From NCBI GenBank assembly GCA_963676925.1, contig OY781473.1, positions 1,218,397 through 1,250,396 of the forward strand: a DNA stretch of 32,000 nucleotides, written 5' to 3'. Position numbers and translations under genes: made by a program. The notes under the pieces are model-generated. The model ran no database searches, had not been told where the DNA came from, and saw only the letters and a program-made list of their open reading frames with translations. The stretch's first letter is position 1. The number at the start of each line of letters is the position of its first letter. Positions 8,975 to 31,330 of this stretch are shown here, piece by piece. This DNA is from an uncultured Desulfobacterium sp. GTDB taxonomy: Bacteria; Desulfobacterota; Desulfobacteria; Desulfobacterales; Desulfobacteraceae.

Positions 8975-10642
8975 CTACCCATCTGTTTCCCCCACCCCCC
9001 GGAGGGTAATCCCAGCCAGACCCGAAAGAAAAAACGCGACCAGGGATGGTGAGACAGGATGATCAAACACCGTTCCATCGGCAGAGACCCCCTGGATACA
9101 GCCATGCTCAAGGAAATCCGCCACCAGAAGTTTACCCGCCGCCCTGCGGTTGGCGGGATCGACCCAAGATCTTCTTTTACCCGTTGATCCTGGGGCGGGC
9201 AGATCATCCTCGTCCTTGAGTGCTTTCATGAAATTGAGCAGCCGGGCAAGCCGGAGCAGGGTTGCCGCCTCAATCCGCGTGGTGGTATCGGAAATGGGAA
9301 AGGCCGTGGATCGCATCTGTTCAAAATTAGCGGGAAGAAGCCCCTTTTGCCTGCACACCATAAAATCATGGCTGCCCGGTGCCGGATAAAAAATGGAGAG
9401 TCCCACCAGGGTCCGCCTGGCCCCGAGGTAAACAAGGTCCCGTACCGACTGGCGGGGGTCCTGGCCCGGGGCTGCGGCAATCAGATAGGACACCGCCTCA
9501 AGGCCAAAAGTTTCGGCACTTTCAAGGCAAAAATCAAGGGCACGGCCCACGTCCGGCCGTTTGAAACGGGCCAGCTGCGCCTTACAGGTGGAGCCCAGGG
9601 AGAGGTTCAAGGTTCTGAACCCTGCCTGCTTCATGGCGGCGATCACCCCATGATCCAGGGATGGTGCATAGAGCCCGTTCATGGCCCGAAGTTCCAGGTC
9701 CCGGGAGCCGTACCGGGCCGAAATTCCCTCAAGGAGGGAGAGGAACCAGCCCCGGTCAAGGCTCAAATTCTCATCCTCAAAATCGACAAACCCGACATCC
9801 TGGCTCTCCATCTGGACCTCAAGTTCGGCCAGGACCGAGGCCACCGACCGACGGCGGAAGGGGGCATGGGCGGACGAGGCCCCAAGACAGCAGTAGGTGC
9901 AGTGCATGGGACACCCCCTTGCCGTGACAACGCTGATGCTGCCCCGTTTTTTCCGCCGGTAAAACGACTGATCCACCAGGTCGGTGGCAGGCAGGGGGGT
10001 ACGGTCAAGGTCGTCTATCCAGGCAGGCTCGTCAACATAAAGGGAGGCGTCTGACCGGCGGAAAACAATCCCCGGCACTCCCTCAAGGCCGGTATGGTCT
10101 TTGAGGGCCAGGGCAAGCTGGGCCATGGACACCTCCCCCTCCCCCCTGAGCACAAAATCCACGGCATCGCAGGCCATGGTCTCCCTTGGAAACACCGTGG
10201 GATGGTGACCGCCCATGACCACACGACAGTCCGGCCAGAACCGCTTGACAGCCCGGGCAGTTTCCATGGCTTCCCTGGAATAGGCCGTAAAGAGCGAGGA
10301 AATCCCCACAAGCAAGGGCTGCGCCGCCCTTGCCCGGGCACCGATATGCTCAAAGCTGTAGCCGTAGTGGCGATAGTGGTGGAAAAGAGCAAACGGCGAC
10401 AGGTCTTCACGGCCATAAAAGAGGCCGAGATCTCCCAGGGTGTCTGGCGTCTCGATGATACGGGATTTCTTAACGGCAAGGCCGTCCACGATGGACACGG
10501 AAAATCCGTTTTGAATCAGGACTGCGGCAATACAGGCAAGGCCGTAGGGAACGGTCCGCTTGGCCGTCAGATAAAACTCCTCCATGGGCGGCTGAACCAG
10601 GAGCACGTCACACAACCCGGCCTTACTGGAGCAAGAACTCAA
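8975..10642 (-). CDS. B12-binding-domain radical SAM protein
   Basis: An N-terminal B12-binding-like region (VLLVQPP, PYGLACIAAVL) is followed by the radical SAM cluster motif CPMHCTYCC. The start is uncertain: TTG 10642 (overlaps the upstream stop), TTG 10615 or GTG 10606. Confidence 0.85.
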   Translation of the reverse strand: MSSCSSKAGLCDVLLVQPPMEEFYLTAKRTVPYGLACIAAVLIQNGFSVSIVDGLAVKKSRIIETPDTLGDLGLFYGREDLSPFALFHHYRHYGYSFEHIGARARAAQPLLVGISSLFTAYSREAMETARAVKRFWPDCRVVMGGHHPTVFPRETMACDAVDFVLRGEGEVSMAQLALALKDHTGLEGVPGIVFRRSDASLYVDEPAWIDDLDRTPLPATDLVDQSFYRRKKRGSISVVTARGCPMHCTYCCLGASSAHAPFRRRSVASVLAELEVQMESQDVGFVDFEDENLSLDRGWFLSLLEGISARYGSRDLELRAMNGLYAPSLDHGVIAAMKQAGFRTLNLSLGSTCKAQLARFKRPDVGRALDFCLESAETFGLEAVSYLIAAAPGQDPRQSVRDLVYLGARRTLVGLSIFYPAPGSHDFMVCRQKGLLPANFEQMRSTAFPISDTTTRIEAATLLRLARLLNFMKALKDEDDLPAPGSTGKRRSWVDPANRRAAGKLLVADFLEHGCIQGVSADGTVFDHPVSPSLVAFFLSGLAGITLRGVGETDG

Positions 10643-12753: not shown

Positions 12754-13227
12754 TCAAGGGGTCCATCCCCGGTCCTGGCATTTTTTCACATAATTCTCCT
12801 TGACCTCCCGGATAAACGTCTCCATGGCCGTCCGGCACTGCTCCTGGGTGGACCCAGAATCCAGGAGAACCGTATCATACTCGTTTTTGGCCGACAGGTC
12901 ATCAATGATCTCAAGTTCGATGCTCGTCTTGTCTGGAACGGGCATCTGCTTGTCCGCAAGCTCGCACCCGACAATGTGGGCCTGCCTTGCCACGGCAGAT
13001 CGTGCCGTGCCGGCCTGACCCTTGTCCATCAAAGCCTGGAGCAGCATTTCATACCGGTCAATGGGGTTCCGCTGGCTTCCAGAGGTTGCCGGATCGGCAG
13101 ACCAGCGCTCGATCTGGCGTTCTCCCCTCTGGAACAGGGCGGTCAGGGTTGACTTGCCAAGATAGTGGATGCAGGCGGAAAAAAACTCCCAGGTCTGCCC
13201 TGGAAGGGTTGTCGGTTCTCGGTCCAT
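12754..13227 (-). CDS. Hypothetical protein (about 157 aa) with a possible CII/Cro-like helix-turn-helix
   Basis: The start is taken at ATG 13227 to avoid overlapping dusB. The segment KSTLTALFQRGERQIERWSAD resembles HTH regions of phage CII-type regulators; this is a weak recognition. Confidence 0.5.
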   Translation of the reverse strand: MDREPTTLPGQTWEFFSACIHYLGKSTLTALFQRGERQIERWSADPATSGSQRNPIDRYEMLLQALMDKGQAGTARSAVARQAHIVGCELADKQMPVPDKTSIELEIIDDLSAKNEYDTVLLDSGSTQEQCRTAMETFIREVKENYVKKCQDRGWTP

Positions 13228-13246
13228 TACGCCCTCGCTTTTAAAG

Positions 13247-14239
13247 TCAAACCAGGATTTCTCCCTGGACGGCATCCTGAAGATCTGCCGCAAATCCACG
13301 GATCAGCCCCAGGGCCTGGTCCAGGGTCTCAATACCGGTAAGCTCCCGTCTGAAAACCGAAGCACCGGCAAACCCCTTGACAAACCAGGCAAGCCGGCTT
13401 CGCATCATCCTGCAGGCCGGTCTTTCACCAAGAAAGGCCGCATGGGAAACCACCATCTCTTCCATGATTTGAAAGATCTCCCCAGGGGTGGGTTCACGCC
13501 GGGCCTCGCCCCTGAGAAGGGCCTCAATGCCGCCAAAGATAAAGGGATTGCCCATGGCGGCCCGGCCGACCATGACGGCGTCGCAACCGGTCTCGTGGAT
13601 CATGGCAACCCCCTGTTCAGGGGTGGTGACGTCCCCGTTTCCGATCACGGGAATGGAGAGCATCTCCTTTAACCGTGCGATCACCGACCAGTCTGCCCTG
13701 CCCCTGAACCCCTGGGCTGCAGTCCTGGGATGGACGGCTATGGCATCCACCCCGTTATCCTCTGCCATGCGGGCAATGTCAAAGGCCTGGGAGGCCGAAC
13801 TGTCCCAACCCGAACGGATCTTGATGGTAAAGGGAATGGACACGGCCCTGCGCACGGCCCGGATAATGGCCCGGGCATTGTCCATGTCCTTCATCAGGGC
13901 CACACCGGCCCCGGTCCTGGCCACCTTTTTAACGCTGCATCCGAAATTGATGTCAATGATATCAGCCCCGTTTCTCTCCTCGATCCAGCGGGCCGCACTG
14001 GCCATGGACCGGGCATCGGCACCAAAAATCTGAACAGACACGGGCCGTTCACTCGGGTCGGTCCGGAGCAGCTGAACCGTCTTTTCCGAATTAAATTCAA
14101 GTCCTTTGGCACTGACCATTTCAGAACAGACCAGGGCACAGCCGCAGTTTTTTGCAATGATCCTGAAGGGAAGGTTGGTAATACCGGCAAGGGGGGCAAG
14201 AACAGTTCTGCCCCCGATATCAAGATCGCCTATTTTCAT
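13247..14239 (-). CDS. dusB: tRNA-dihydrouridine synthase (DusB-like)
   Basis: The N-terminus LAPLAGITNLPFR, the TIM-barrel FMN motifs (DINFGC, IKIRSGW, VHPRT) and 330-aa length fit the Dus family. Confidence 0.9.
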   Translation of the reverse strand: MKIGDLDIGGRTVLAPLAGITNLPFRIIAKNCGCALVCSEMVSAKGLEFNSEKTVQLLRTDPSERPVSVQIFGADARSMASAARWIEERNGADIIDINFGCSVKKVARTGAGVALMKDMDNARAIIRAVRRAVSIPFTIKIRSGWDSSASQAFDIARMAEDNGVDAIAVHPRTAAQGFRGRADWSVIARLKEMLSIPVIGNGDVTTPEQGVAMIHETGCDAVMVGRAAMGNPFIFGGIEALLRGEARREPTPGEIFQIMEEMVVSHAAFLGERPACRMMRSRLAWFVKGFAGASVFRRELTGIETLDQALGLIRGFAADLQDAVQGEILV

Positions 14240-14290: not shown

Positions 14291-14668
14291 TCAGGACTTT
14301 GAGCTGTTTTTATTTCTGGCACGCACATCGGCAAGGGAGATCACCTTTCCATGGCTCTCCTGGGAGGACGGTCCGGACTGGTCCGGGCCGGGGGTCTTGG
14401 AATCTGAATCCACGGCAGGTGCCGGTGCCGTCTCCTCCGGGGCCTCGACCACTTCAATCTTCATGCGTTTTCCGCCCATGAAAAAATCGTCACCGTTGAT
14501 GTAAAGATCCTTCAACGTCCAGGTCACGGTCTGGAGGGGGATCTGGAGCATGAGCAGGGTGATATGGTACCAGTCCTTTTTCACGTCCGGCTCGATGGAT
14601 TCAACCCTGGCAAACGAAACCGGGGTATCCTCCAGATAAATCAAAACAACATCATTTTCCCTGGCCAT
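14291..14668 (-). CDS. Hypothetical protein, 125 aa, with a folded N-terminal part and a Pro/Ser-rich tail
   Basis: Clean ORF at the head of the minus-strand gene run. I recognise no family. Confidence 0.6.
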   Translation of the reverse strand: MARENDVVLIYLEDTPVSFARVESIEPDVKKDWYHITLLMLQIPLQTVTWTLKDLYINGDDFFMGGKRMKIEVVEAPEETAPAPAVDSDSKTPGPDQSGPSSQESHGKVISLADVRARNKNSSKS

Positions 14669-14891: not shown

Positions 14892-14951
14892 GGGTCAGAA
14901 GGGTTCCACAGGGTACCCCCTCGACTTTTCAACCTGTTGGGAAAAAAAATT

Positions 14952-15614
14952 ATGGATAAAATCAGCATCCTGTTTGATCTGGATGGAACACTCACAGACC
15001 CCCTGCAGGGCATCTCAAGATCTATCTGCCATGCCATGGAAGCCCTGGGCCGGCCGTTACCCCCCCAGGCGGATTTGCGGTGGTGCATTGGACCGCCCCT
15101 AAAAAAAAGCTTTGCCATCCTGCTTGAATCCGATGATGACAGCCTTGCCGAAAAGGCCCTGGCAATCTACCGGGAGCGGTTCGGCTCGGTCGGTCTGTTT
15201 GAGAACAGGGTCTATGCAGGAATTCCCCAGGCACTGAAAAGGCTCCAGGACGATTGCCACCCGCTCTATGTGGCCACATCAAAGCCCCGGGTCTACGCCC
15301 AGCGGATTGTCGACCATTTTAACCTGGGCCAGTATTTCAACCAGATCCACGGCAGTGAACTGGATGGCACCCGAACCGATAAAACCAGTTTGATCGCCCA
15401 CGTTCTGAACCGTGAGTCCCTTGATCCGTCCAGGACAGCCATGGTCGGGGACCGCAGGCACGACATGATCGGTGCAGCAGCCAACAGGGTGTGCGGGATT
15501 GGCGTTCTCTGGGGATTTGGAACAAAAAAGGAACTGACGGATTCAGGGGCATCGGCCTGTATTCAAAGCCCTCCAGGGCTGATCACAACATTCAACACAG
15601 AAGGAACCCCATGA
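14952..15614 (+). CDS. HAD-IA family hydrolase (phosphoglycolate-phosphatase-like)
   Basis: HAD motif I (FDLDGTLTD), motif II (ATSK) and motif IV (GDRRHD) are present. The start is taken at ATG 14952; the ORF track begins at TTG 14937. Its TGA stop overlaps the ATG at 15611 (ATGA). Confidence 0.85.
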   Translation: MDKISILFDLDGTLTDPLQGISRSICHAMEALGRPLPPQADLRWCIGPPLKKSFAILLESDDDSLAEKALAIYRERFGSVGLFENRVYAGIPQALKRLQDDCHPLYVATSKPRVYAQRIVDHFNLGQYFNQIHGSELDGTRTDKTSLIAHVLNRESLDPSRTAMVGDRRHDMIGAAANRVCGIGVLWGFGTKKELTDSGASACIQSPPGLITTFNTEGTP

Positions 15615-15652
15615 ACGATAAAATTGATAACGGGACCTGCTGAGGCCCTCCG

Positions 15653-15677
15653 CCTGCTCCCCCGTCTGGGGATCATG
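15653..15677 (+). other. SECIS-like hairpin downstream of the in-frame TGA at 15641-15643
   Basis: A GC-rich core stem pairs 15658-15662 with 15668-15672 around the loop CGUCU. Extra pairs are 15653/15677, 15655/15675 and 15656/15674. The loop begins 22 nt from the U of UGA and contains GU. Confidence 0.35.
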
Positions 15678-15745
15678 AACGACCAGGTTACCGGATCCTC
15701 CCATTTGTCGACCGGTTTGTCAAAACAGAGGCCGGAGGGGTTCCC

Positions 15746-16720
15746 GTGGTAAAAACGACCCTGGAAATTGGCGACAGGCTGGGCACGGTGCGGGCCCGCC
15801 TGGGAATCTTGAGGGATGAATACAAAGTTGTGCCGGGAATCTACGGGGTCGGCAGCCCGGACAGACACTCCCCGGTTCTGGTAACTGCAAATTACAAGCT
15901 CTCGTTTGACTGCCTGAGAAGGCATCTCCAGGGGCTGGACGCATGGATTCTGGTTCTGGACACCCGGGGGATCAATGTATGGTGTGCCGCAGGCAAGGGG
16001 ACCTTTGCAACGGATGAGCTTGTCAAACGGATCCGGTCCTCACATATTGCCAGACTTGTGGATCATCGAAGCGTGATTGTCCCCCAGCTCGGGGCAACGG
16101 GGGTTTCAGCCCTCAGGGTCAGACGATTGTCCGGATTCAAGGTCATATGGGGACCCATCCGGGCCGAAGATATCAAGGCGTTCCTTGCAGCCGGCCATGG
16201 GGCATCACAGGAGATGAGGGAGGTCACCTTTCCGTTACGGGAGCGCATGGTCCTGATACCCGTGGAAATCCGCCTTCTCATAAAATATCTGGCGTGGCTG
16301 ATCCCGGTCGTGTTTCTGGTTTCAGGCATCGGGCCTGCCGTCTTCTCGTTCCAGGCGGCCTGGTCCCGGGGCATTCTGCTGCTCTTCTCCGTGCTGGCCG
16401 GGATCGTTGCGGGAACGGTGGTGACCCCCATTCTTCTGCTGCGGCTTCCCGGGGTCTTTTTTTCCATAAAAGGTGCCATTGCCGGAGTGGCTGCGGGAAT
16501 TGTGTCGGCATCGGCAATGCCTTCCGGTGTGGGAGTTTCAGGCCTCCTCGCCCTGGTTCTCATCACCACATCCCTGGGGTCCTATCTTGCCATGAACTTT
16601 ACAGGATCAACCCCCTTTACCTCACCCTCGGGGGTGGAACATGAGATGAAGCGGTCCCTGCCCTGGCAGATTTCATCCGTGGCCGCAGGAACCCTCCTCT
16701 GGCTGATTTCGGCATTTTAA
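15746..16720 (+). CDS. hgcA: Mercury methylation corrinoid protein HgcA. This is the minimal ORF from GTG 15746; the coding region probably extends upstream to ATG 15611 through TGA 15641 (see findings)
   Basis: The diagnostic cap-helix motif NVWCAAGKG lies at 15974-16000. The corrinoid-binding-domain context (SPVLVTANYKLSFD, LVLDTRGI) is followed by about 4-5 C-terminal TM helices, and hgcB follows directly. Confidence 0.9.
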   Translation: MVKTTLEIGDRLGTVRARLGILRDEYKVVPGIYGVGSPDRHSPVLVTANYKLSFDCLRRHLQGLDAWILVLDTRGINVWCAAGKGTFATDELVKRIRSSHIARLVDHRSVIVPQLGATGVSALRVRRLSGFKVIWGPIRAEDIKAFLAAGHGASQEMREVTFPLRERMVLIPVEIRLLIKYLAWLIPVVFLVSGIGPAVFSFQAAWSRGILLLFSVLAGIVAGTVVTPILLLRLPGVFFSIKGAIAGVAAGIVSASAMPSGVGVSGLLALVLITTSLGSYLAMNFTGSTPFTSPSGVEHEMKRSLPWQISSVAAGTLLWLISAF

Positions 16721-16736: not shown

Positions 16737-17018
16737 ATGGAACATTTTCACTATATCAAGGACGTTTCAACCATCGCCCTTGACCGACTCAAATGCATCG
16801 GGTGCGGCATGTGCCGGACGGTCTGTCCCCATGGGGTGTTTGTCCTGGCGGACAAAAAAGCCGAATTTGCCATGAAGGACGCCTGCATCGAATGCGGAGC
16901 CTGCGCCAACAACTGCCCCGTGGACGCCATCTCAGTAAACCCGGGCACAGGGTGCGCCGCCCTGATCATGGAAAGGTGGTTCAAGGGACGGATCCGTCCC
17001 GGCAACAGCTGCTGCTGA
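16737..17018 (+). CDS. hgcB: Mercury methylation ferredoxin HgcB (2x[4Fe-4S])
   Basis: It has two CX2CX2CX3CP motifs (CIGCGMCRTVCP, CIECGACANNCP), the conserved Cys in PGTGCAA and the C-terminal CC pair. An AAGGAGAA SD lies 16 nt after the hgcA stop. Confidence 0.9.
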   Translation: MEHFHYIKDVSTIALDRLKCIGCGMCRTVCPHGVFVLADKKAEFAMKDACIECGACANNCPVDAISVNPGTGCAALIMERWFKGRIRPGNSCC

Positions 17019-17050
17019 AAAATGACCCGATCAAACAAAAAAGGAACCCC

Positions 17051-18007
17051 ATGAAGATTGCACTTTTATACGAGCACCCCACCTGGTCCGACGCCCTGAT
17101 TGAAACATTTAAATCCAATGGGATTGATTTAAGACGGATCAATGTTGCAGACCTCTCTTTTTGCCCGGACCAAGGGTGCCCTGATTTTAATTTCGCTGTC
17201 AACCGCATTAATATCATGCCCTCTTCGGGAAGGGATCCATCCGTTGTTTTCCATACCCTTCACTACCTGAACTGGCTGGAAGCCATGGGAGTCACCCTTG
17301 TCAACGGCAGCCGTACCCACTTTGCCGGTGCTTCCAAGGCGCTACAAAACGGTTTGTTCGCCAGACTGGGACTCCACTGCCCCCGGGCGGTTGCCGTCCA
17401 TCGGCCCGAGGATGTCTTGACGGCCGCCGAATCTATCGGGTTCCCGCTGATCATCAAACCCAATATCGGTGGCTCCGGAAGCGGGATTGCCCGGTATGAC
17501 AGCGATGATGAACTGGAAGCCGCGGTTGCGTCGGGGAATGTCGATCTGGGAATTGACGGCACCGGCCTGGTCCAGGAATATATCCATTCCGATGGCTACG
17601 TCTACCGGGTTGAAATCCTTGGCAAACGCCTCTTTTACAGCATCAAACAGAAAATGGTGGCAAACACCTTTAACTATTGCGCAGCAGACGGCTGCTCCGT
17701 GACTCAAACGTCCCATGGCAAGACCGACGCCTTTGACCATTGCGCCCTGAACCCGGAGGTCCGGATCCAGGCGTTTGAAGCCGATGAGACCATTGTTGCC
17801 CAGGTGGTATCCATCATACAGGGTGCCGGTGCCGATCTTGGCGGTGTGGAATACCTCCTGGACACCCGCACGGGCAAACCCTGCTTCTATGATTTCAACC
17901 CCTACTCAAACTTTGTCTCCAACGGCCAGGCCCTGCTCGGGTTTTCCCCGGAACAACGATTTGTTGACTATGTTAAAGCGTTATATACCAGACACAACCC
18001 GGCCTGA
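17051..18007 (+). CDS. ATP-grasp domain protein (RimK / glutathione-synthetase-like ligase), 318 aa
   Basis: ATP-grasp motifs are IIKPNIGGSGSGI, LVQEYI and GGVEYL, then DFNP. The start at ATG 17051 has an AAGGA SD. The longer ORF from 16793 overlaps hgcB and is rejected. Confidence 0.85.
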   Translation: MKIALLYEHPTWSDALIETFKSNGIDLRRINVADLSFCPDQGCPDFNFAVNRINIMPSSGRDPSVVFHTLHYLNWLEAMGVTLVNGSRTHFAGASKALQNGLFARLGLHCPRAVAVHRPEDVLTAAESIGFPLIIKPNIGGSGSGIARYDSDDELEAAVASGNVDLGIDGTGLVQEYIHSDGYVYRVEILGKRLFYSIKQKMVANTFNYCAADGCSVTQTSHGKTDAFDHCALNPEVRIQAFEADETIVAQVVSIIQGAGADLGGVEYLLDTRTGKPCFYDFNPYSNFVSNGQALLGFSPEQRFVDYVKALYTRHNPA

Positions 18008-21517: not shown

Positions 21518-22870
21518 CTATTTATATTCAGACGGCTCTATCCCATATTTTTTCACCTTATAATGAATGGCGCGTTTACTGATGTTCAAAAGGTCGGCAG
21601 CGTGTTTCTGCACCCCCCTTGATTCTTTCAACGCCCGGATAATCGTATTTTTTTCGCTTTGTTCAATGGAAAAGTCCTGTTGTGCGTCAGATACCAGGGT
21701 CGCACCCTTTCGGATGTTCTCAATCTGAAGGTCCCAGGGCTGAATGGTATGGTCCTGGCAGAGAATGGTTCCGGCTTCAAGGGTGTTTTTCAATTCCCTG
21801 ATGTTTCCGGGCCATGGATGTTCCAGGAGGACCTTCATGGTTGTATCTGCGATCCGGGTTGACTCAATGCCCTGGGCCCGGGTGTATCGATCCACAAAGA
21901 AATGTGACAGCAGCAGAATATCCTCTTTTCGTTCCCTCAGGGGAGGGATGGTCAGGGTAATGCCCTTTAACCGGTAATAGAGATCCTGTCGAAAGGTACC
22001 GGATTCAATATCCGCCATTAAATCGGCATTGGTCGCTGCAATGATCCTGCAATCGATGATTGCATCCCGGACCGAACCGACTTGCCGGATTTTCCCGTCC
22101 TCCAGAAATCTCAACAACCGGCATTGCATCTCCTGGGAAATGTTGCCGATTTCATCCAGAAAGAGTGTACCCCGGTCTGCAGCCTGAATCAGGCCCTGTT
22201 TATCTTTAACTGCGGTGGTAAACGCACCTTTGACATGTCCGAACAATTCGCTCTCCAGGATACCGTCCGGTGTGGAACCACAGTCAACGACCCTATACGG
22301 ATGGGACTTTCTGGTGCTGTTCTGGTGAATGTAGCTGGCAATGCATTCTTTGCCCACACCGCTTTCACCGAGAATCAACACGTTTACCTGGGTGGCCGAA
22401 ACCTTTTGAACCATGGAATAAAGCGCTTTCATGACCCGGCTTTTACCCCAGTAATAATCGCCTTCAAAGGCGGTCGGACATTTTTTCTCTTTAACCCTGA
22501 CCTGGGCAGCAAGGGTATCATTAATTTTCTGGATCAGCATCCGGCCGTCAAAGGGTTTTGAAATATAATCAACCGCCCCCTGCCGTATGGCATCCACCGC
22601 ATCCGGAATCGTACCGTAGGCGGTCAGGAAAATAACGGGGAGATCCGGAAGCTTTTTCTGAATTTGTGTGAATAATTCAATACCGCTTTTTTGGGGCATC
22701 TTTACGTCTGAGACGAGGAGATCAATGGGTTGAGCCTCTAATATCTGGATGGCAGTTGCTGCATCCCTGGCCCTTAATACTGTAAAATTTGACGCTGTAA
22801 GCCTTGCATCAAGCACTTCAAGGATACTGGGGTCGTCATCAACGATTAATATTATAGGACCGGCCGTCAT
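21518..22870 (-). CDS. Sigma-54-dependent response regulator (NtrC family enhancer-binding protein)
   Basis: It has a receiver domain (IVDDD, LLVSDVKMP), an AAA+ domain with Walker A GESGVGKE and a GAFTGA-loop variant GAFTTA, and a C-terminal Fis-type HTH (AADLLNISKRAIHYKVKKYGI). Confidence 0.92.
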   Translation of the reverse strand: MTAGPIILIVDDDPSILEVLDARLTASNFTVLRARDAATAIQILEAQPIDLLVSDVKMPQKSGIELFTQIQKKLPDLPVIFLTAYGTIPDAVDAIRQGAVDYISKPFDGRMLIQKINDTLAAQVRVKEKKCPTAFEGDYYWGKSRVMKALYSMVQKVSATQVNVLILGESGVGKECIASYIHQNSTRKSHPYRVVDCGSTPDGILESELFGHVKGAFTTAVKDKQGLIQAADRGTLFLDEIGNISQEMQCRLLRFLEDGKIRQVGSVRDAIIDCRIIAATNADLMADIESGTFRQDLYYRLKGITLTIPPLRERKEDILLLSHFFVDRYTRAQGIESTRIADTTMKVLLEHPWPGNIRELKNTLEAGTILCQDHTIQPWDLQIENIRKGATLVSDAQQDFSIEQSEKNTIIRALKESRGVQKHAADLLNISKRAIHYKVKKYGIEPSEYK

Positions 22871-23580
22871 TGCGTTTTCCTTTTTTCCTGGAGATCCTGG
22901 TCAATGCTTTCAAGGGTTGAGATCTGGTGCTGGAGGGTTTTGACAAGGGTCTGTAATTTATGGATCTCCCGGTTTTGTTTTGCGGTTTTGGCTTTCAATC
23001 CGTCAATCAGGTTTAAGTTTGCCTGTTGTTCTGCCATCATCAGGCGGCTGCCGTGTTCCAGGGCCCTGATCAGCAATTCAGAATCTTTGGGCGGAGCAAC
23101 GCCCACCCCGGCACTGTCTGCCTGGGTGCTGTTCCGGTTATAATGCTGCAAAAATGAAACCAGAACCCGATGGAATGCCGAGGCATCCCCTGCAGTGGCC
23201 AATGTTACACAGACCAGGCCAAAACGCCCATAACTTTGATCTTCAGAACCTTCTGCAAGCTCTGACAGCGCCTGAAATTTTTCTCTGGCAAGCAGGTAAT
23301 CCCCACTTAAAAAAGCCTGGCGGGACTGTTTGACCATCATGTTTTCCGTGACCACCTTATTTTCATCGATCATTATATTTTCATCGTTCATCATATCTTC
23401 ATCGACCGTCATATCTTCATAGACCGTCACATCTTCCTTGACCACCGGATACCTGCTCTGGTGTTGGCATCCAATCAGAACAACTCCCAGGCATAAAAAT
23501 AAGACAAACCAGTACAACCCAAAGAACCGGCTGGCATTAAATTTCAAAATACCATCATTCACGTATGATCCAAACATCAA
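22867..23580 (-). CDS. Putative lipoprotein with an acidic hexapeptide-repeat linker and a C-terminal coiled coil
   Basis: The signal peptide ends in the lipobox LIGC. It sits 9 nt after the kinase stop, and its stop overlaps the regulator ATG (ATGA). Confidence 0.65.
   Translation of the reverse strand: MMFGSYVNDGILKFNASRFFGLYWFVLFLCLGVVLIGCQHQSRYPVVKEDVTVYEDMTVDEDMMNDENIMIDENKVVTENMMVKQSRQAFLSGDYLLAREKFQALSELAEGSEDQSYGRFGLVCVTLATAGDASAFHRVLVSFLQHYNRNSTQADSAGVGVAPPKDSELLIRALEHGSRLMMAEQQANLNLIDGLKAKTAKQNREIHKLQTLVKTLQHQISTLESIDQDLQEKRKTQ
23335..23445 (-). repeat. About six degenerate tandem 18-nt (hexapeptide) repeats inside the lipoprotein gene
   Basis: The protein reads VVKEDV/TVYEDM/TVDEDM/MNDENI/MIDENK/VVTENM. 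The DNA units atcttcatcgaccgtcat, atcttcatagaccgtcac and atcttccttgaccaccgg are visible on the plus strand. Confidence 0.7.
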
Positions 23581-28420: not shown

Positions 28421-31330
28421 ATGAAAAACGGCCAATCCGCAATGGAATCCATCATAGAAGACATCAAACCCCGGAAGACCATGGAACTTGACACCATCAT
28501 CGTCAAGGGAGCCCGGGAGCACAACCTGAAAAACATCGATGTAACACTTCCCAAGAAACAGCTCATCGTGTTCACCGGGGTATCGGGATCCGGCAAATCA
28601 AGCCTTGCCTTTGACACCATCTTTGCCGAAGGGCAGCGCCGCTACGTGGAATCGCTCTCCTCCTATGCCCGGCAGTTCATCGGCCAGATGGAAAAGCCCA
28701 AGTACGACACCATCCGTGGGCTTTCCCCCACCATTGCCATCGAACAAAAGGCTGCCAGCAAGAACCCGAGATCCACCGTGGGAACCATCACCGAGATCTA
28801 CGACTACCTCAGGGTGCTCTTTGCCAGGATCGGCACCCAGTACTGTTTTCAATGCGGCAAAAAGGTCGGCCAGGGCAATGCCGAGACCATGGTCTCCCAG
28901 ATCCTTGGCCTTCCCCTGGGTTCCAAGATCCTGGTCATGGCGCCCATTGTTGAGAACCGGAAGGGCGAACACCGGGACCGGCTGGGCGATCTCAAACAAG
29001 AGGGGTTTGCCAGAGTCAGGATCAACGGCGTGGTCCAGGATCTTGCCGATGTACAGACCCTGCCCAAGAACAAAAAGCACAACATCGAGGTGGTGGTGGA
29101 CCGCCTGGTCATCAAGCAGGACCCGGCATTCACAAAGCGCCTCACCGACTCGGTGGAGACAGCCCTTAAACTTGGCAACGGCCGGCTCTTTGTCCACATC
29201 CCGGGCCGGGAAGACCTCAAGATGAGCGAGGCCCGTTCCTGCTGCGGCATGGCCTATCCCGAGCTTGTGCCCCAGCTCTTTTCGTTCAACTCACCCCTTG
29301 GCATGTGCTCGGAATGCAATGGTATCGGCACCCTCCTGTCCATGGACGTAAACAAGGTCGTTGCCGACCCCAGTCTCACAATCCGCCAGGGGGCCGTTAT
29401 TCCATGGAAAAACTATTTCCTGAAGAACCCCCGTTATACCAACAGCTCCTGGGGCAAAGAACAGCTCCTGGCCATGGAAGAGCAGTGGGGTCTGGATTAT
29501 GACACCCCGTGGAAGGATCTTCCACGGGACCAGAAGGACCTCATCCTGTTCGGCTCCAACGGCAGGGAACTGACCGTCAACTGGAACTCGGCCAAGATCC
29601 AGGGGGCAGTGACCATGTCCCACGAGGGGGTGCTCAACACCCTCATGCGCCGGTACCGGTCCACCCAGTCCGAGGGGTCCAAACGGTACTATTCAGGCTT
29701 CATGACGTCCAAACCCTGTCCTGTGTGCCAGGGGCGACGCCTCAAGCAAGAGGTGCTCCACGTCATGATCAACGGCCGTTCGATCATTGATCTCACCGAA
29801 ATGACCATCCAGGAGGCCCATGAATTCATCTCACGCCTTGAGCTTCAAGGCAACCAGCTGCTCATTGCCGAAGAGCTGTTAAAGGAGATCCAGGACCGCC
29901 TGGGATTCCTTGTAAACGTTGGGCTTGACTATCTTTCACTGGACCGGAACGGCCCCACCCTGTCCGGCGGTGAATCCCAGAGGATACGGCTGGCCTCCCA
30001 GATCGGTTCCGAGCTCACCGGCGTTCTTTACATCCTGGATGAACCCTCCATCGGCCTGCACCAGCGGGACAATGGAAAGCTGCTCAAGACCCTCCACCAC
30101 CTCCGGGACATCGGCAACACCCTCATCGTTGTTGAACACGACCAGGAAACCATGGAGAAGAGCGACTGGATCGTGGACATCGGCCCGGGTGCAGGGCACC
30201 TTGGGGGCCAGATCGTGGCCCAGGGCACCCCGGACCAGATTAAACAAGATCCCATGTCCATCACGGGCCGGTTCCTCAACATGACCGAAACCATTGAGAT
30301 TCCGGAACAAAGACGCACTCCCAGGCAAATGGGCAACCGCTTTGTCACCATCAAGGGGGCCACGGAAAACAACCTGAAAAACGTCACGGCCAAAATCCCC
30401 CTGGGGCTGGTCGTTGCCGTCACCGGGGTTTCAGGGGCCGGAAAATCCACCCTCATCAACCAGATCCTCTACCCGGCCCTGGCCGTAACACTCAACAAGG
30501 CCACCCTGGAGGTTGGTCGTCACCGGGCCATCACCGGCCTTGAGCACCTGGACAAGATTATCAACATCGACCAGAAGCCCATCGGCAGGACCCCAAGGAG
30601 CAACCCTGCCACCTACACCAAGGTGTTTGATCCCATACGGGAACTGTTTGCCAGCCTTCCAGAGGCAAAGGCCAGGGGATATCAAAAGGGACGCTTCTCG
30701 TTCAACGTCAAGGGCGGCCGGTGCGAGGCCTGCCACGGGGACGGTTACATCAAGGTGGAGATGCACTTTCTGGCGGACGTGTTTGTTCCCTGCGAGGTGT
30801 GCCACGGAAAACGGTTCAATACCGCCACCCTGGAGATCAAGTACAAGGACCATTCCATTGCCGATGTCCTCGACCTTTCCGTGGTCCAGGCCATGGAGTT
30901 GTTCAAGAACCACCCGAAAATCCGGACCATCCTCACCACCCTCATGGATGTGGGGCTGACCTATGTCAAGCTGGGCCAGGCCGCAACCACCCTTTCAGGC
31001 GGCGAGGCCCAGCGCATCAAGCTTGCCCGGGAGCTTGCCAAAAGGGATACGGGCAAGACCCTCTACATCCTGGACGAACCCACCACGGGACTTCATTTCC
31101 AGGATGTCAAACTGCTCCTGAAAGTTCTCCAGCGGCTCTCCCTTGCCGGTAACACCGTGATCATCATCGAGCATAACCTGGACGTGATCAAAACCGCGGA
31201 CTGGATCATCGATCTTGGCCCGGAGGGGGGCCACAGGGGCGGTGAGATCATTGCCCAGGGGTCTCCTGAACAGGTTGCCCGATCAAAGCAGAGCTACACC
31301 GGGCATTTTCTGAAAAAAATGCTGGTCTAG
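28421..31330 (+). CDS. uvrA: Excinuclease ABC subunit A
   Basis: It aligns by eye with E. coli UvrA from GAREHNLKNI onward. Both ABC modules (GVSGSGKSSLAFDT, GVSGAGKSTL, LSGGE x2) and the zinc-finger cysteines are present. ATG 28481 (MELDTIIVKGAR) is an equally plausible start. Confidence 0.95.
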   Translation: MKNGQSAMESIIEDIKPRKTMELDTIIVKGAREHNLKNIDVTLPKKQLIVFTGVSGSGKSSLAFDTIFAEGQRRYVESLSSYARQFIGQMEKPKYDTIRGLSPTIAIEQKAASKNPRSTVGTITEIYDYLRVLFARIGTQYCFQCGKKVGQGNAETMVSQILGLPLGSKILVMAPIVENRKGEHRDRLGDLKQEGFARVRINGVVQDLADVQTLPKNKKHNIEVVVDRLVIKQDPAFTKRLTDSVETALKLGNGRLFVHIPGREDLKMSEARSCCGMAYPELVPQLFSFNSPLGMCSECNGIGTLLSMDVNKVVADPSLTIRQGAVIPWKNYFLKNPRYTNSSWGKEQLLAMEEQWGLDYDTPWKDLPRDQKDLILFGSNGRELTVNWNSAKIQGAVTMSHEGVLNTLMRRYRSTQSEGSKRYYSGFMTSKPCPVCQGRRLKQEVLHVMINGRSIIDLTEMTIQEAHEFISRLELQGNQLLIAEELLKEIQDRLGFLVNVGLDYLSLDRNGPTLSGGESQRIRLASQIGSELTGVLYILDEPSIGLHQRDNGKLLKTLHHLRDIGNTLIVVEHDQETMEKSDWIVDIGPGAGHLGGQIVAQGTPDQIKQDPMSITGRFLNMTETIEIPEQRRTPRQMGNRFVTIKGATENNLKNVTAKIPLGLVVAVTGVSGAGKSTLINQILYPALAVTLNKATLEVGRHRAITGLEHLDKIINIDQKPIGRTPRSNPATYTKVFDPIRELFASLPEAKARGYQKGRFSFNVKGGRCEACHGDGYIKVEMHFLADVFVPCEVCHGKRFNTATLEIKYKDHSIADVLDLSVVQAMELFKNHPKIRTILTTLMDVGLTYVKLGQAATTLSGGEAQRIKLARELAKRDTGKTLYILDEPTTGLHFQDVKLLLKVLQRLSLAGNTVIIIEHNLDVIKTADWIIDLGPEGGHRGGEIIAQGSPEQVARSKQSYTGHFLKKMLV

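Follow-up and report, generated by a model that had tools for sequence, protein, structure and literature searches.

HgcA is the enzyme that makes methylmercury, and its true N-terminus bears on structural models, on recombinant constructs and on gene-based surveys of methylators. The hgcA gene in a 32,000-nt stretch of contig OY781473.1 from an uncultured Desulfobacterium sp. (hereafter the window, whose positions serve as coordinates throughout) raises the question of where this protein begins, and whether a UGA codon in the 5′ part of its reading frame is a stop or encodes selenocysteine (Sec). Public databases hold the product only as a 324-residue protein (P0001) starting at GTG 15746. 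We conclude, with a probability of roughly 87%, that hgcA starts at ATG 15611, 135 bases 5′ of the database start, and that the UGA is read as Sec, which would give the protein a Cys-Sec pair.

Two candidate starts flank an in-frame UGA

The ATG at 15611–15613 overlaps the stop codon of an upstream HAD-family gene (TGA 15612–15614) as ATGA, and is preceded by a Shine-Dalgarno-like AAGGA. From this ATG, the frame reads MNDKIDNGTC, meets TGA at 15641–15643 and continues as GPPPAPPSGDHERPGYRILPFVDRFVKTEAGGVPVV, with GTG 15746 as the first in-frame ATG, GTG or TTG past the TGA. The initial annotation had described the same arrangement, and direct checks of the sequence, its translation and the list of open reading frames (ORFs) confirmed it in each part: the AAGGA 5 nt upstream and the ATGA overlap, the TGA right after the TGC codon for Cys, and the stretch from 15644 to 15745 free of start codons in frame. 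Also confirmed was the 15-nt start context AAGGAACCCCATGAA, which occurs in two exact copies in the window, at 15601–15615 and 17041–17055, against a chance expectation of 0.02 copies (two matches were seen in 0 of 100 shuffles). The second copy forms the database start of a RimK-like ATP-grasp gene (318 residues) downstream of hgcB, and the identity of the two copies may reflect a shared ribosome-binding site or the trace of a small duplication. An exact look-up of the 369-residue form, with X in place of Sec, returned no entry in the protein collection.

A different account of this arrangement takes the UGA as an ordinary stop that ends a 10-codon leader, MNDKIDNGTC, with HgcA translated from GTG 15746 by way of GGAGG to give 324 residues; in a mixed version, the UGA would be read through when selenium is available and the GTG used otherwise. 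Both the GTG and a GGAGG (15734–15738, 7 nt before it) are indeed present, gene callers pick this start, and the HgcA profile NCBIfam NF040863 begins its match at residue 44 of the long form. Because that profile spans only residues 44–368, however, it is uninformative on the N-terminal extension, and the GGAGG does not count as a separate argument for a ribosome-binding site, since it is forced by the conserved A-G-G/V-P codons.

The stretch before the GTG belongs to HgcA

The best database homologs of the long form are about 400 residues long and cover 94–100% of it. Their N-termini read ...PCCGPPAGPPSSPHERPGY.L..FV..F..T.AG.VP.V.T, and the PCCGPPAGPPSSPHERPGY..FV of the Cys-form homologs aligns with TC-U-GPPPAPPSGDHERPGYRILPFV in the window, so that the N-terminal 45 residues of the window protein can be aligned with Cys-form homologs. 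In an alignment of 118 Cys-form homologs, the column of the UGA is an invariant Cys; G12 is also invariant, C10 is at least 90% conserved, and E23, P25, G26, V33, F36 and P45 are conserved among the homologs. Homology upstream of the GTG, proposed in the initial annotation, is thereby borne out.

Codon comparison with L081, a Logan assembly with 71% protein identity, points in the same direction. The 36 codons that run from TGC 15638 to GTG 15746 comprise 20 identical ones, 12 with synonymous and 4 with non-synonymous differences, while the following 84 codons give 46, 21 and 17, respectively. The stretch before the GTG is thus at least as constrained as the sequence downstream, and by this comparison purifying selection acts on the protein sequence encoded between the UGA and the GTG.

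An AlphaFold2 model of the Cys-form homolog P0023 (mean predicted local distance difference test score, pLDDT, 85.8; P0023 numbering is window numbering plus 3) shows no secondary structure in residues 1–30 (pLDDT 42–63), followed by β-strands at 36–42 and 45–50 with pLDDT values of 88–95. Since these strands map to window residues 33–39 and 42–47, the GTG codon (residue 46) falls inside the second predicted strand. Alignment, the invariant Cys, selection and the fold of P0023 all indicate that the stretch before the GTG is part of HgcA.

These observations make a leader followed by a GTG start improbable. Under that account, 34 startless codons before the GTG would differ mostly synonymously from a relative at 71% identity for no reason in the protein, residues invariant in the family would be encoded outside it, and a β-hairpin predicted with confidence would be expected to lose its whole first strand and half of its second. 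One biochemical result can be read in favour of the shorter product, namely that HgcA of strain ND132 is active in lysate, with the absence of the N-terminal arm deduced from its size and residue numbering. The ND132 construct nevertheless keeps the β-hairpin, because the old annotated start of that protein aligns at about residue 33–34 of the window protein. The RNA hairpin specific to UGA-form hgcA genes, described below, would also be left unexplained.

Cys and UGA codons alternate at one aligned position

We compared the site across 84 hgcA sequences, made up of the window, 80 genome loci among the matches listed and the contigs L081–L083. With a looser pattern, 27 of these carry Cys-UGA at the aligned site and 41 carry Cys-Cys (CC), whereas 13 have neither and the anchor motif was not found in the remaining 3. 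A strict pattern recovers TGC/TGT-TGA at the same codons in 20 sequences, the codon pairs at the site being TGC/TGT-TGA in one form and TGC/TGT-TGC/TGT in the other. The TGC-TGA is kept in L082, a near-identical metagenome contig from a separate Joint Genome Institute (JGI) sample, and both L081 and L083 (from another JGI sample, likewise at 71% protein identity) read RPC-UGA-GPPPAPPSGDHERPGY; the C-UGA also occurs in about 23 further species among the matches listed. The comparison of orthologs that had been proposed for this codon thus returned the Cys/Sec signature it was meant to look for.

This alternation bears directly on the idea that the TGA stands in place of a TGC or TGT Cys codon through faulty sequencing or through a recent inactivating change, which would make hgcA a pseudogene. 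Only one base separates TGC from TGA, and the nearest named Cys-form relatives do have TGC or TGT at this codon. The TGA is shared, however, by three independent metagenome assemblies, two of them at 71% protein identity, and by about 23 other species; the gene is intact downstream, and purifying selection is seen on either side of the TGA. Alternation of Cys and UGA at a single aligned codon is the classical signature of a selenoprotein and therefore effectively rules out an error or a recent nonsense mutation, an explanation that we rejected on the strength of the UGA being kept across independent assemblies and species, and to which we assign only a marginal probability.

A rough neighbour-joining tree places the window lineage separately from the main UGA-form clade. 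A group of Desulfobacula, Desulfotignum and Desulfobacter type (L006, L015, L016, L019, L027, L034, L035, L039, L040 and L042) keeps the extension and the (E/D)(K/R)PGY block and has neither CC nor C-UGA, so the dyad can be lost entirely.

A hairpin downstream of the UGA is specific to UGA-form genes

Bacterial Sec insertion sequence (SECIS) elements are hairpins that bind SelB and lie immediately 3′ of the UGA, E. coli fdhF being an example. A GC-rich hairpin with the loop CGUCU had been noted in the window as SECIS-like; comparison among hgcA genes bears this out and refines its bounds to 15655–15675. As in bacterial SECIS elements, the hairpin is intra-coding, with its stem starting 11–14 nt and its apical loop 19 nt past the UGA, and its loop contains G-U (CGUCU in the window, GUC in most UGA-form hgcA genes). 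The loop triplet GUC lies at +23 to +25 from the U of the UGA, matching other UGA-form hgcA genes. The element therefore joins conservation in UGA-form orthologs to a G-containing apical loop and a short spacing, fixed in length, on the 3′ side of the UGA. Unlike typical bacterial SECIS elements, this candidate SelB site has a short stem, and no Rfam family recognises it.

A hairpin in the same register is found in nearly every UGA-form hgcA, typically as CCCCG-GUC-CGGGG, and is absent from CC forms. Mean local folding energy is −10.2 kcal/mol in 20 UGA forms versus −4.2 kcal/mol in 39 CC forms (Mann-Whitney p = 1.6e-7, kinship ignored). Of the 15 UGA-form sequences with Gly at the codon closing the stem, 14 use GGG, and a natural control is provided by the CC-form L037, in which the peptide P-R-S-G is encoded as CCC CGG AGC GGC, without this hairpin. 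We built a covariance model from 17 UGA forms, with the window's own lineage excluded, and it detected the window site (15641–15679) at 37.8 bits (E = 1.9e-8), within the range of held-out UGA forms (37.7–46 bits); homologous CC-form sites scored about 11 bits or less. A sequence-only model gave 26.7 bits on the window site, so structure contributes about 11 bits. By these comparisons, the hairpin is specific to UGA-form hgcA.

Two further observations concern the distribution of the element. The L083 record contains a run of about 40 N (positions ~214–254) right after its TGC-TGA-GGT-CCT... stretch, and because of this scaffold gap the hairpin region is absent from the record. In the distant loci L054, L072, L073, L077 and L080, C-UGA-P replaces C-UGA-G (for example GC*PPKAPPG and SC*PKGTAQ), and none of the five was picked up by the hairpin model based on the main clade; these loci may have a different SECIS, or their UGA may have another meaning.

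The conservation of both frame and hairpin also bears on other routes past the UGA, such as a +1 frameshift from ATG 15675, a non-canonical start, for example at ATC 15692, or read-through by a near-cognate Cys- or Trp-tRNA. ATG 15675 does exist, inside an ORF at 15624–15752, and UGA is the leakiest stop codon. Yet the frame conserved from the Cys codon onward is the one that contains the UGA and not the +1 frame, a start at 15675 or 15692 would lose the conserved CU-G...ERPGY block, and Cys/UGA alternation together with a hairpin in UGA forms only is the signature of a selenoprotein. We rejected the frameshift on the first of these grounds and consider the routes as a whole very unlikely. The alternatives listed in the initial annotation (initiation at the GTG behind a short upstream ORF, a frameshift from ATG 15675, and a sequencing error or nonsense mutation) are all contradicted by the aligned codon, UGA conservation, selection, fold and hairpin.

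The source lineage is likely to be capable of Sec insertion

The UvrA protein encoded at 28421–31330 of the window shares 96% identity with UvrA1 of Desulforapulum (Desulfobacterium) autotrophicum HRM2, which marks the source as a close relative of that sulfate-reducing strain. D. autotrophicum HRM2 has selA, selB, selC and selD, along with at least 31 selenoproteins, and by analogy the source genome would be expected to carry the Sec machinery as well. The 90% cluster that contains the window's HgcA includes no HRM2 sequence.

Sec-containing HgcA has been described before

The initial annotation stated that no Sec-containing HgcA had been described, which is wrong. HgcA selenoproteins with a Cys-Sec (CU) motif were described by Haft and Gwadz in 2022 (bioRxiv 10.1101/2022.07.06.499078; NCBIfam NF040863), with a journal version in 2023 (J Bacteriol 2023, 205:e00259-22), and a 2026 review of the prokaryotic selenoproteome lists HgcA (NF040863) with the CU motif. 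The set studied by Haft and Gwadz comprised 20 hgcA genes, those of ND132 and G. sulfurreducens among them; each could be lengthened 5′ through one UGA to 363–400 residues, the motif PCUGP was present in 20 of 20, and all host species encode Sec machinery. The reading of HgcA as a Sec-containing protein is therefore correct but already known.

The window gene resembles the published ones in having an in-frame UGA directly after a Cys codon, 5′ of the formerly annotated start, and in the C-U-G-P that results (...DDAPCUGPRPDPRAGVFEKPGYAVEPFV in ND132, ...DNGTCUGPPPAPPSGDHERPGYRILPFV in the window). Its length of 369 residues lies within the published range, and CC occupies this site in Cys-form homologs. 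It differs in having only 10 residues ahead of the Sec, and the GPPPAPPSG that follows the Sec resembles Cys-form Desulfobacterales, not the GPKPEPRSG of the main UGA-form clade. The window's nearest relatives, L081 and L083, carry PCUGP.

In the preprint, as far as a term search reaches, SECIS elements are covered by a general manual inspection only, with no HgcA-specific description of a SECIS, hairpin or stem-loop. The window cleanly illustrates a point already published, namely that entries for HgcA in databases are often cut at the Sec codon. It adds one more CU-motif lineage, a relative of Desulforapulum, together with a TCUGP variant, and, as a small addition, evidence from comparison for a SECIS hairpin confined to hgcA genes of the UGA form.

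A Cys-Sec arm may deliver mercury to the corrinoid site

In the mechanism that we propose, ribosomes begin at ATG 15611 by translational coupling to the stop of the HAD-family gene upstream, and the UGA at codon 11 would be decoded as Sec. By analogy with other bacterial selenoprotein mRNAs, the hairpin would recruit SelB carrying Sec-tRNA(Sec). The predicted product is a 369-residue HgcA whose first ~30 residues would form a flexible, proline-rich arm bearing Cys10-Sec11, ahead of the β-hairpin of the corrinoid-binding domain. The Cys10-Sec11 pair could then capture Hg(II) and hand it over to the methyl-corrinoid site, in parallel with what has been proposed for the C-terminal CC of HgcB; that a Cys-Sec pair may act as a high-affinity Hg(II) ligand like the HgcB tail was suggested by Haft and Gwadz (bioRxiv 10.1101/2022.07.06.499078), who also noted that the CU motif, a rare one, recurs in other proteins with a presumed role in handling mercury or organometallics. 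Like the CC tail of HgcB, the CU motifs of SaoB, SaoC and SaoL and the MerT-family selenoproteins, HgcA would present a vicinal thiol/selenol pair on a predicted flexible segment. Unlike the HgcB tail, this putative ligand pair sits at the N-terminus of a corrinoid protein and not at the end of a ferredoxin. The central proposal, an HgcA with ATG 15611 as its start and with a Cys-Sec dyad, was first put forward in the initial annotation and is supported by the aligned codon, UGA conservation, selection, fold and hairpin, so that Sec insertion is, from this comparative evidence, highly probable.

Several observations weigh against this reading. On the side of the RNA, the hairpin is short, with five core pairs and two outer pairs; folding gave a mixed answer to the SECIS proposal, as the hairpin itself reaches −8.6 kcal/mol but the 53-nt region at 15638–15690 folds no better than its shuffles (z = +0.5), so the element is meaningful only through comparative evidence and not through thermodynamics. 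The fold contrast between UGA and CC forms is uncorrected for phylogeny, covariation on a fixed 8-pair helix is modest (the observed score was reached in 12 of 500 shuffles), and the register of the hairpin is shifted in several UGA-form sequences. On the side of the gene, the window reads TCUGP, with Thr in place of the first Pro of the "perfectly conserved" PCUGP, albeit at a non-liganding position, and the GGAGG before GTG 15746 makes some internal initiation possible. The annotation of tRNAs, Pfam and NCBIfam families found no gene for Sec machinery within the 32 kb, and in the literature searched, Sec in HgcA is the subject of bioinformatic reports only, with no experimental demonstration found.

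On the side of function, 13 of the 84 listed homologs lack both CC and CU, and recombinant ND132 HgcAB shows Hg-methylating activity in a lysate of E. coli. Judging from its band at 37 kDa and the numbering of C93, the recombinant ND132 HgcA probably lacked the CU arm, in which case catalysis in vitro does not require the arm. Both this lysate activity, if the construct was indeed armless, and the motif-less homologs suggest that the arm is dispensable for catalysis.

A wider evolutionary reading is that Sec, and not Cys, was ancestral in the N-terminal arm of HgcA, with CC and motif-less forms arising by repeated secondary losses. The lineage formed by the window and L081–L083 lies near the Cys-form Desulfobacterales HgcA, yet in sequence and register alike its hairpin agrees with the one in the distant Desulfovibrio/Desulfobulbales UGA-form clade, and it is this sharing of a hairpin by a lineage apart from the main UGA clade that suggests the idea. 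We regard it as speculative, with the odds against it. If it were true, selenium supply would control the amount of full-length HgcA in Sec-form methylators, and the production of methylmercury would be tied directly, at the molecular level, to the availability of selenium.

HgcA, HgcB and neighbouring genes

The assignment of the gene to HgcA is secure. The long form scores 424 bits against NF040863 (cut-off 275), and the cap-helix motif N(V/I)WCA(A/G)GK with its essential Cys is present as NVWCAAGK at residues 122–129; N122, W124, C125, A127, G128 and K129 are invariant, and V123 and A126 at least 90% conserved, across 119 sequences. The model of P0023 has five long helices past residue 212, in accordance with the five C-terminal transmembrane helices of the family, and the window HgcA aligns with homologs throughout this region. 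HgcB, whose gene starts 16 nt past hgcA, scores 111 bits against its NCBIfam profile (cut-off 99).

Table 1 Features of the hgcA region, in window positions.
Feature	Position	Strand	Evidence or remark
HAD-family phosphatase-like gene, upstream of hgcA	14937–15614	+	superfamily-level assignment
Shine-Dalgarno-like AAGGA	15601–15605	+	5 nt before ATG 15611
Full-length hgcA, 369 codons and stop, codon 11 = UGA (probable Sec)	15611–16720	+	translation, NF040863, Cys-form alignment
TGC-TGA, probable Cys10-Sec11 dyad	15638–15643	+	aligned with CC of the CC-G motif
Conserved coding stretch between UGA and annotated GTG	15644–15745	+	no in-frame ATG/GTG/TTG
SECIS-like hairpin	15655–15675	+	core stem 15658–15662/15668–15672, loop CGUCU 15663–15667, outer pairs 15655–56/15674–75
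GTG, database start of 324-residue HgcA; codon 46 (Val) of the long form	15746–15748	+	ORF list, P0001
hgcB, Cys form, with Cys73 and C-terminal CC	16737–17018	+	NCBIfam NF040864

Position 73 of HgcB is Sec in about 6% of HgcB proteins (Haft and Gwadz, bioRxiv 10.1101/2022.07.06.499078). The window's HgcB has Cys there, and the organism would therefore use Sec in HgcA and not in HgcB. A scan of the window for ORF pairs bridged by TGA gave no convincing second selenoprotein.

For the HAD-family gene, all NCBIfam matches fall under the family cut-offs, so only the superfamily assignment is safe. A short palindrome, AGCCCTCCAGGGCT, lies near its end (15567–15585), about 25 nt before the hgcA start, and lacks a T-run; a permissive Rfam scan of 15500–15900 returned only a chance-level CRISPR-DR12 match (E = 0.11) at this palindrome. 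Across the whole window, no tRNA gene was found, and no Rfam family at gathering thresholds.

The remaining genes of the window are ordinary housekeeping and regulatory genes by Pfam and NCBIfam. Three ORFs on the minus strand are without a Pfam match at E ≤ 1e-5, at 12754–13299 (181 residues), 14291–14668 (125 residues) and 22867–23580 (237 residues). About 5 kb from hgcAB, a 555-residue protein with a B12-binding domain is encoded on the minus strand at 8975–10642.

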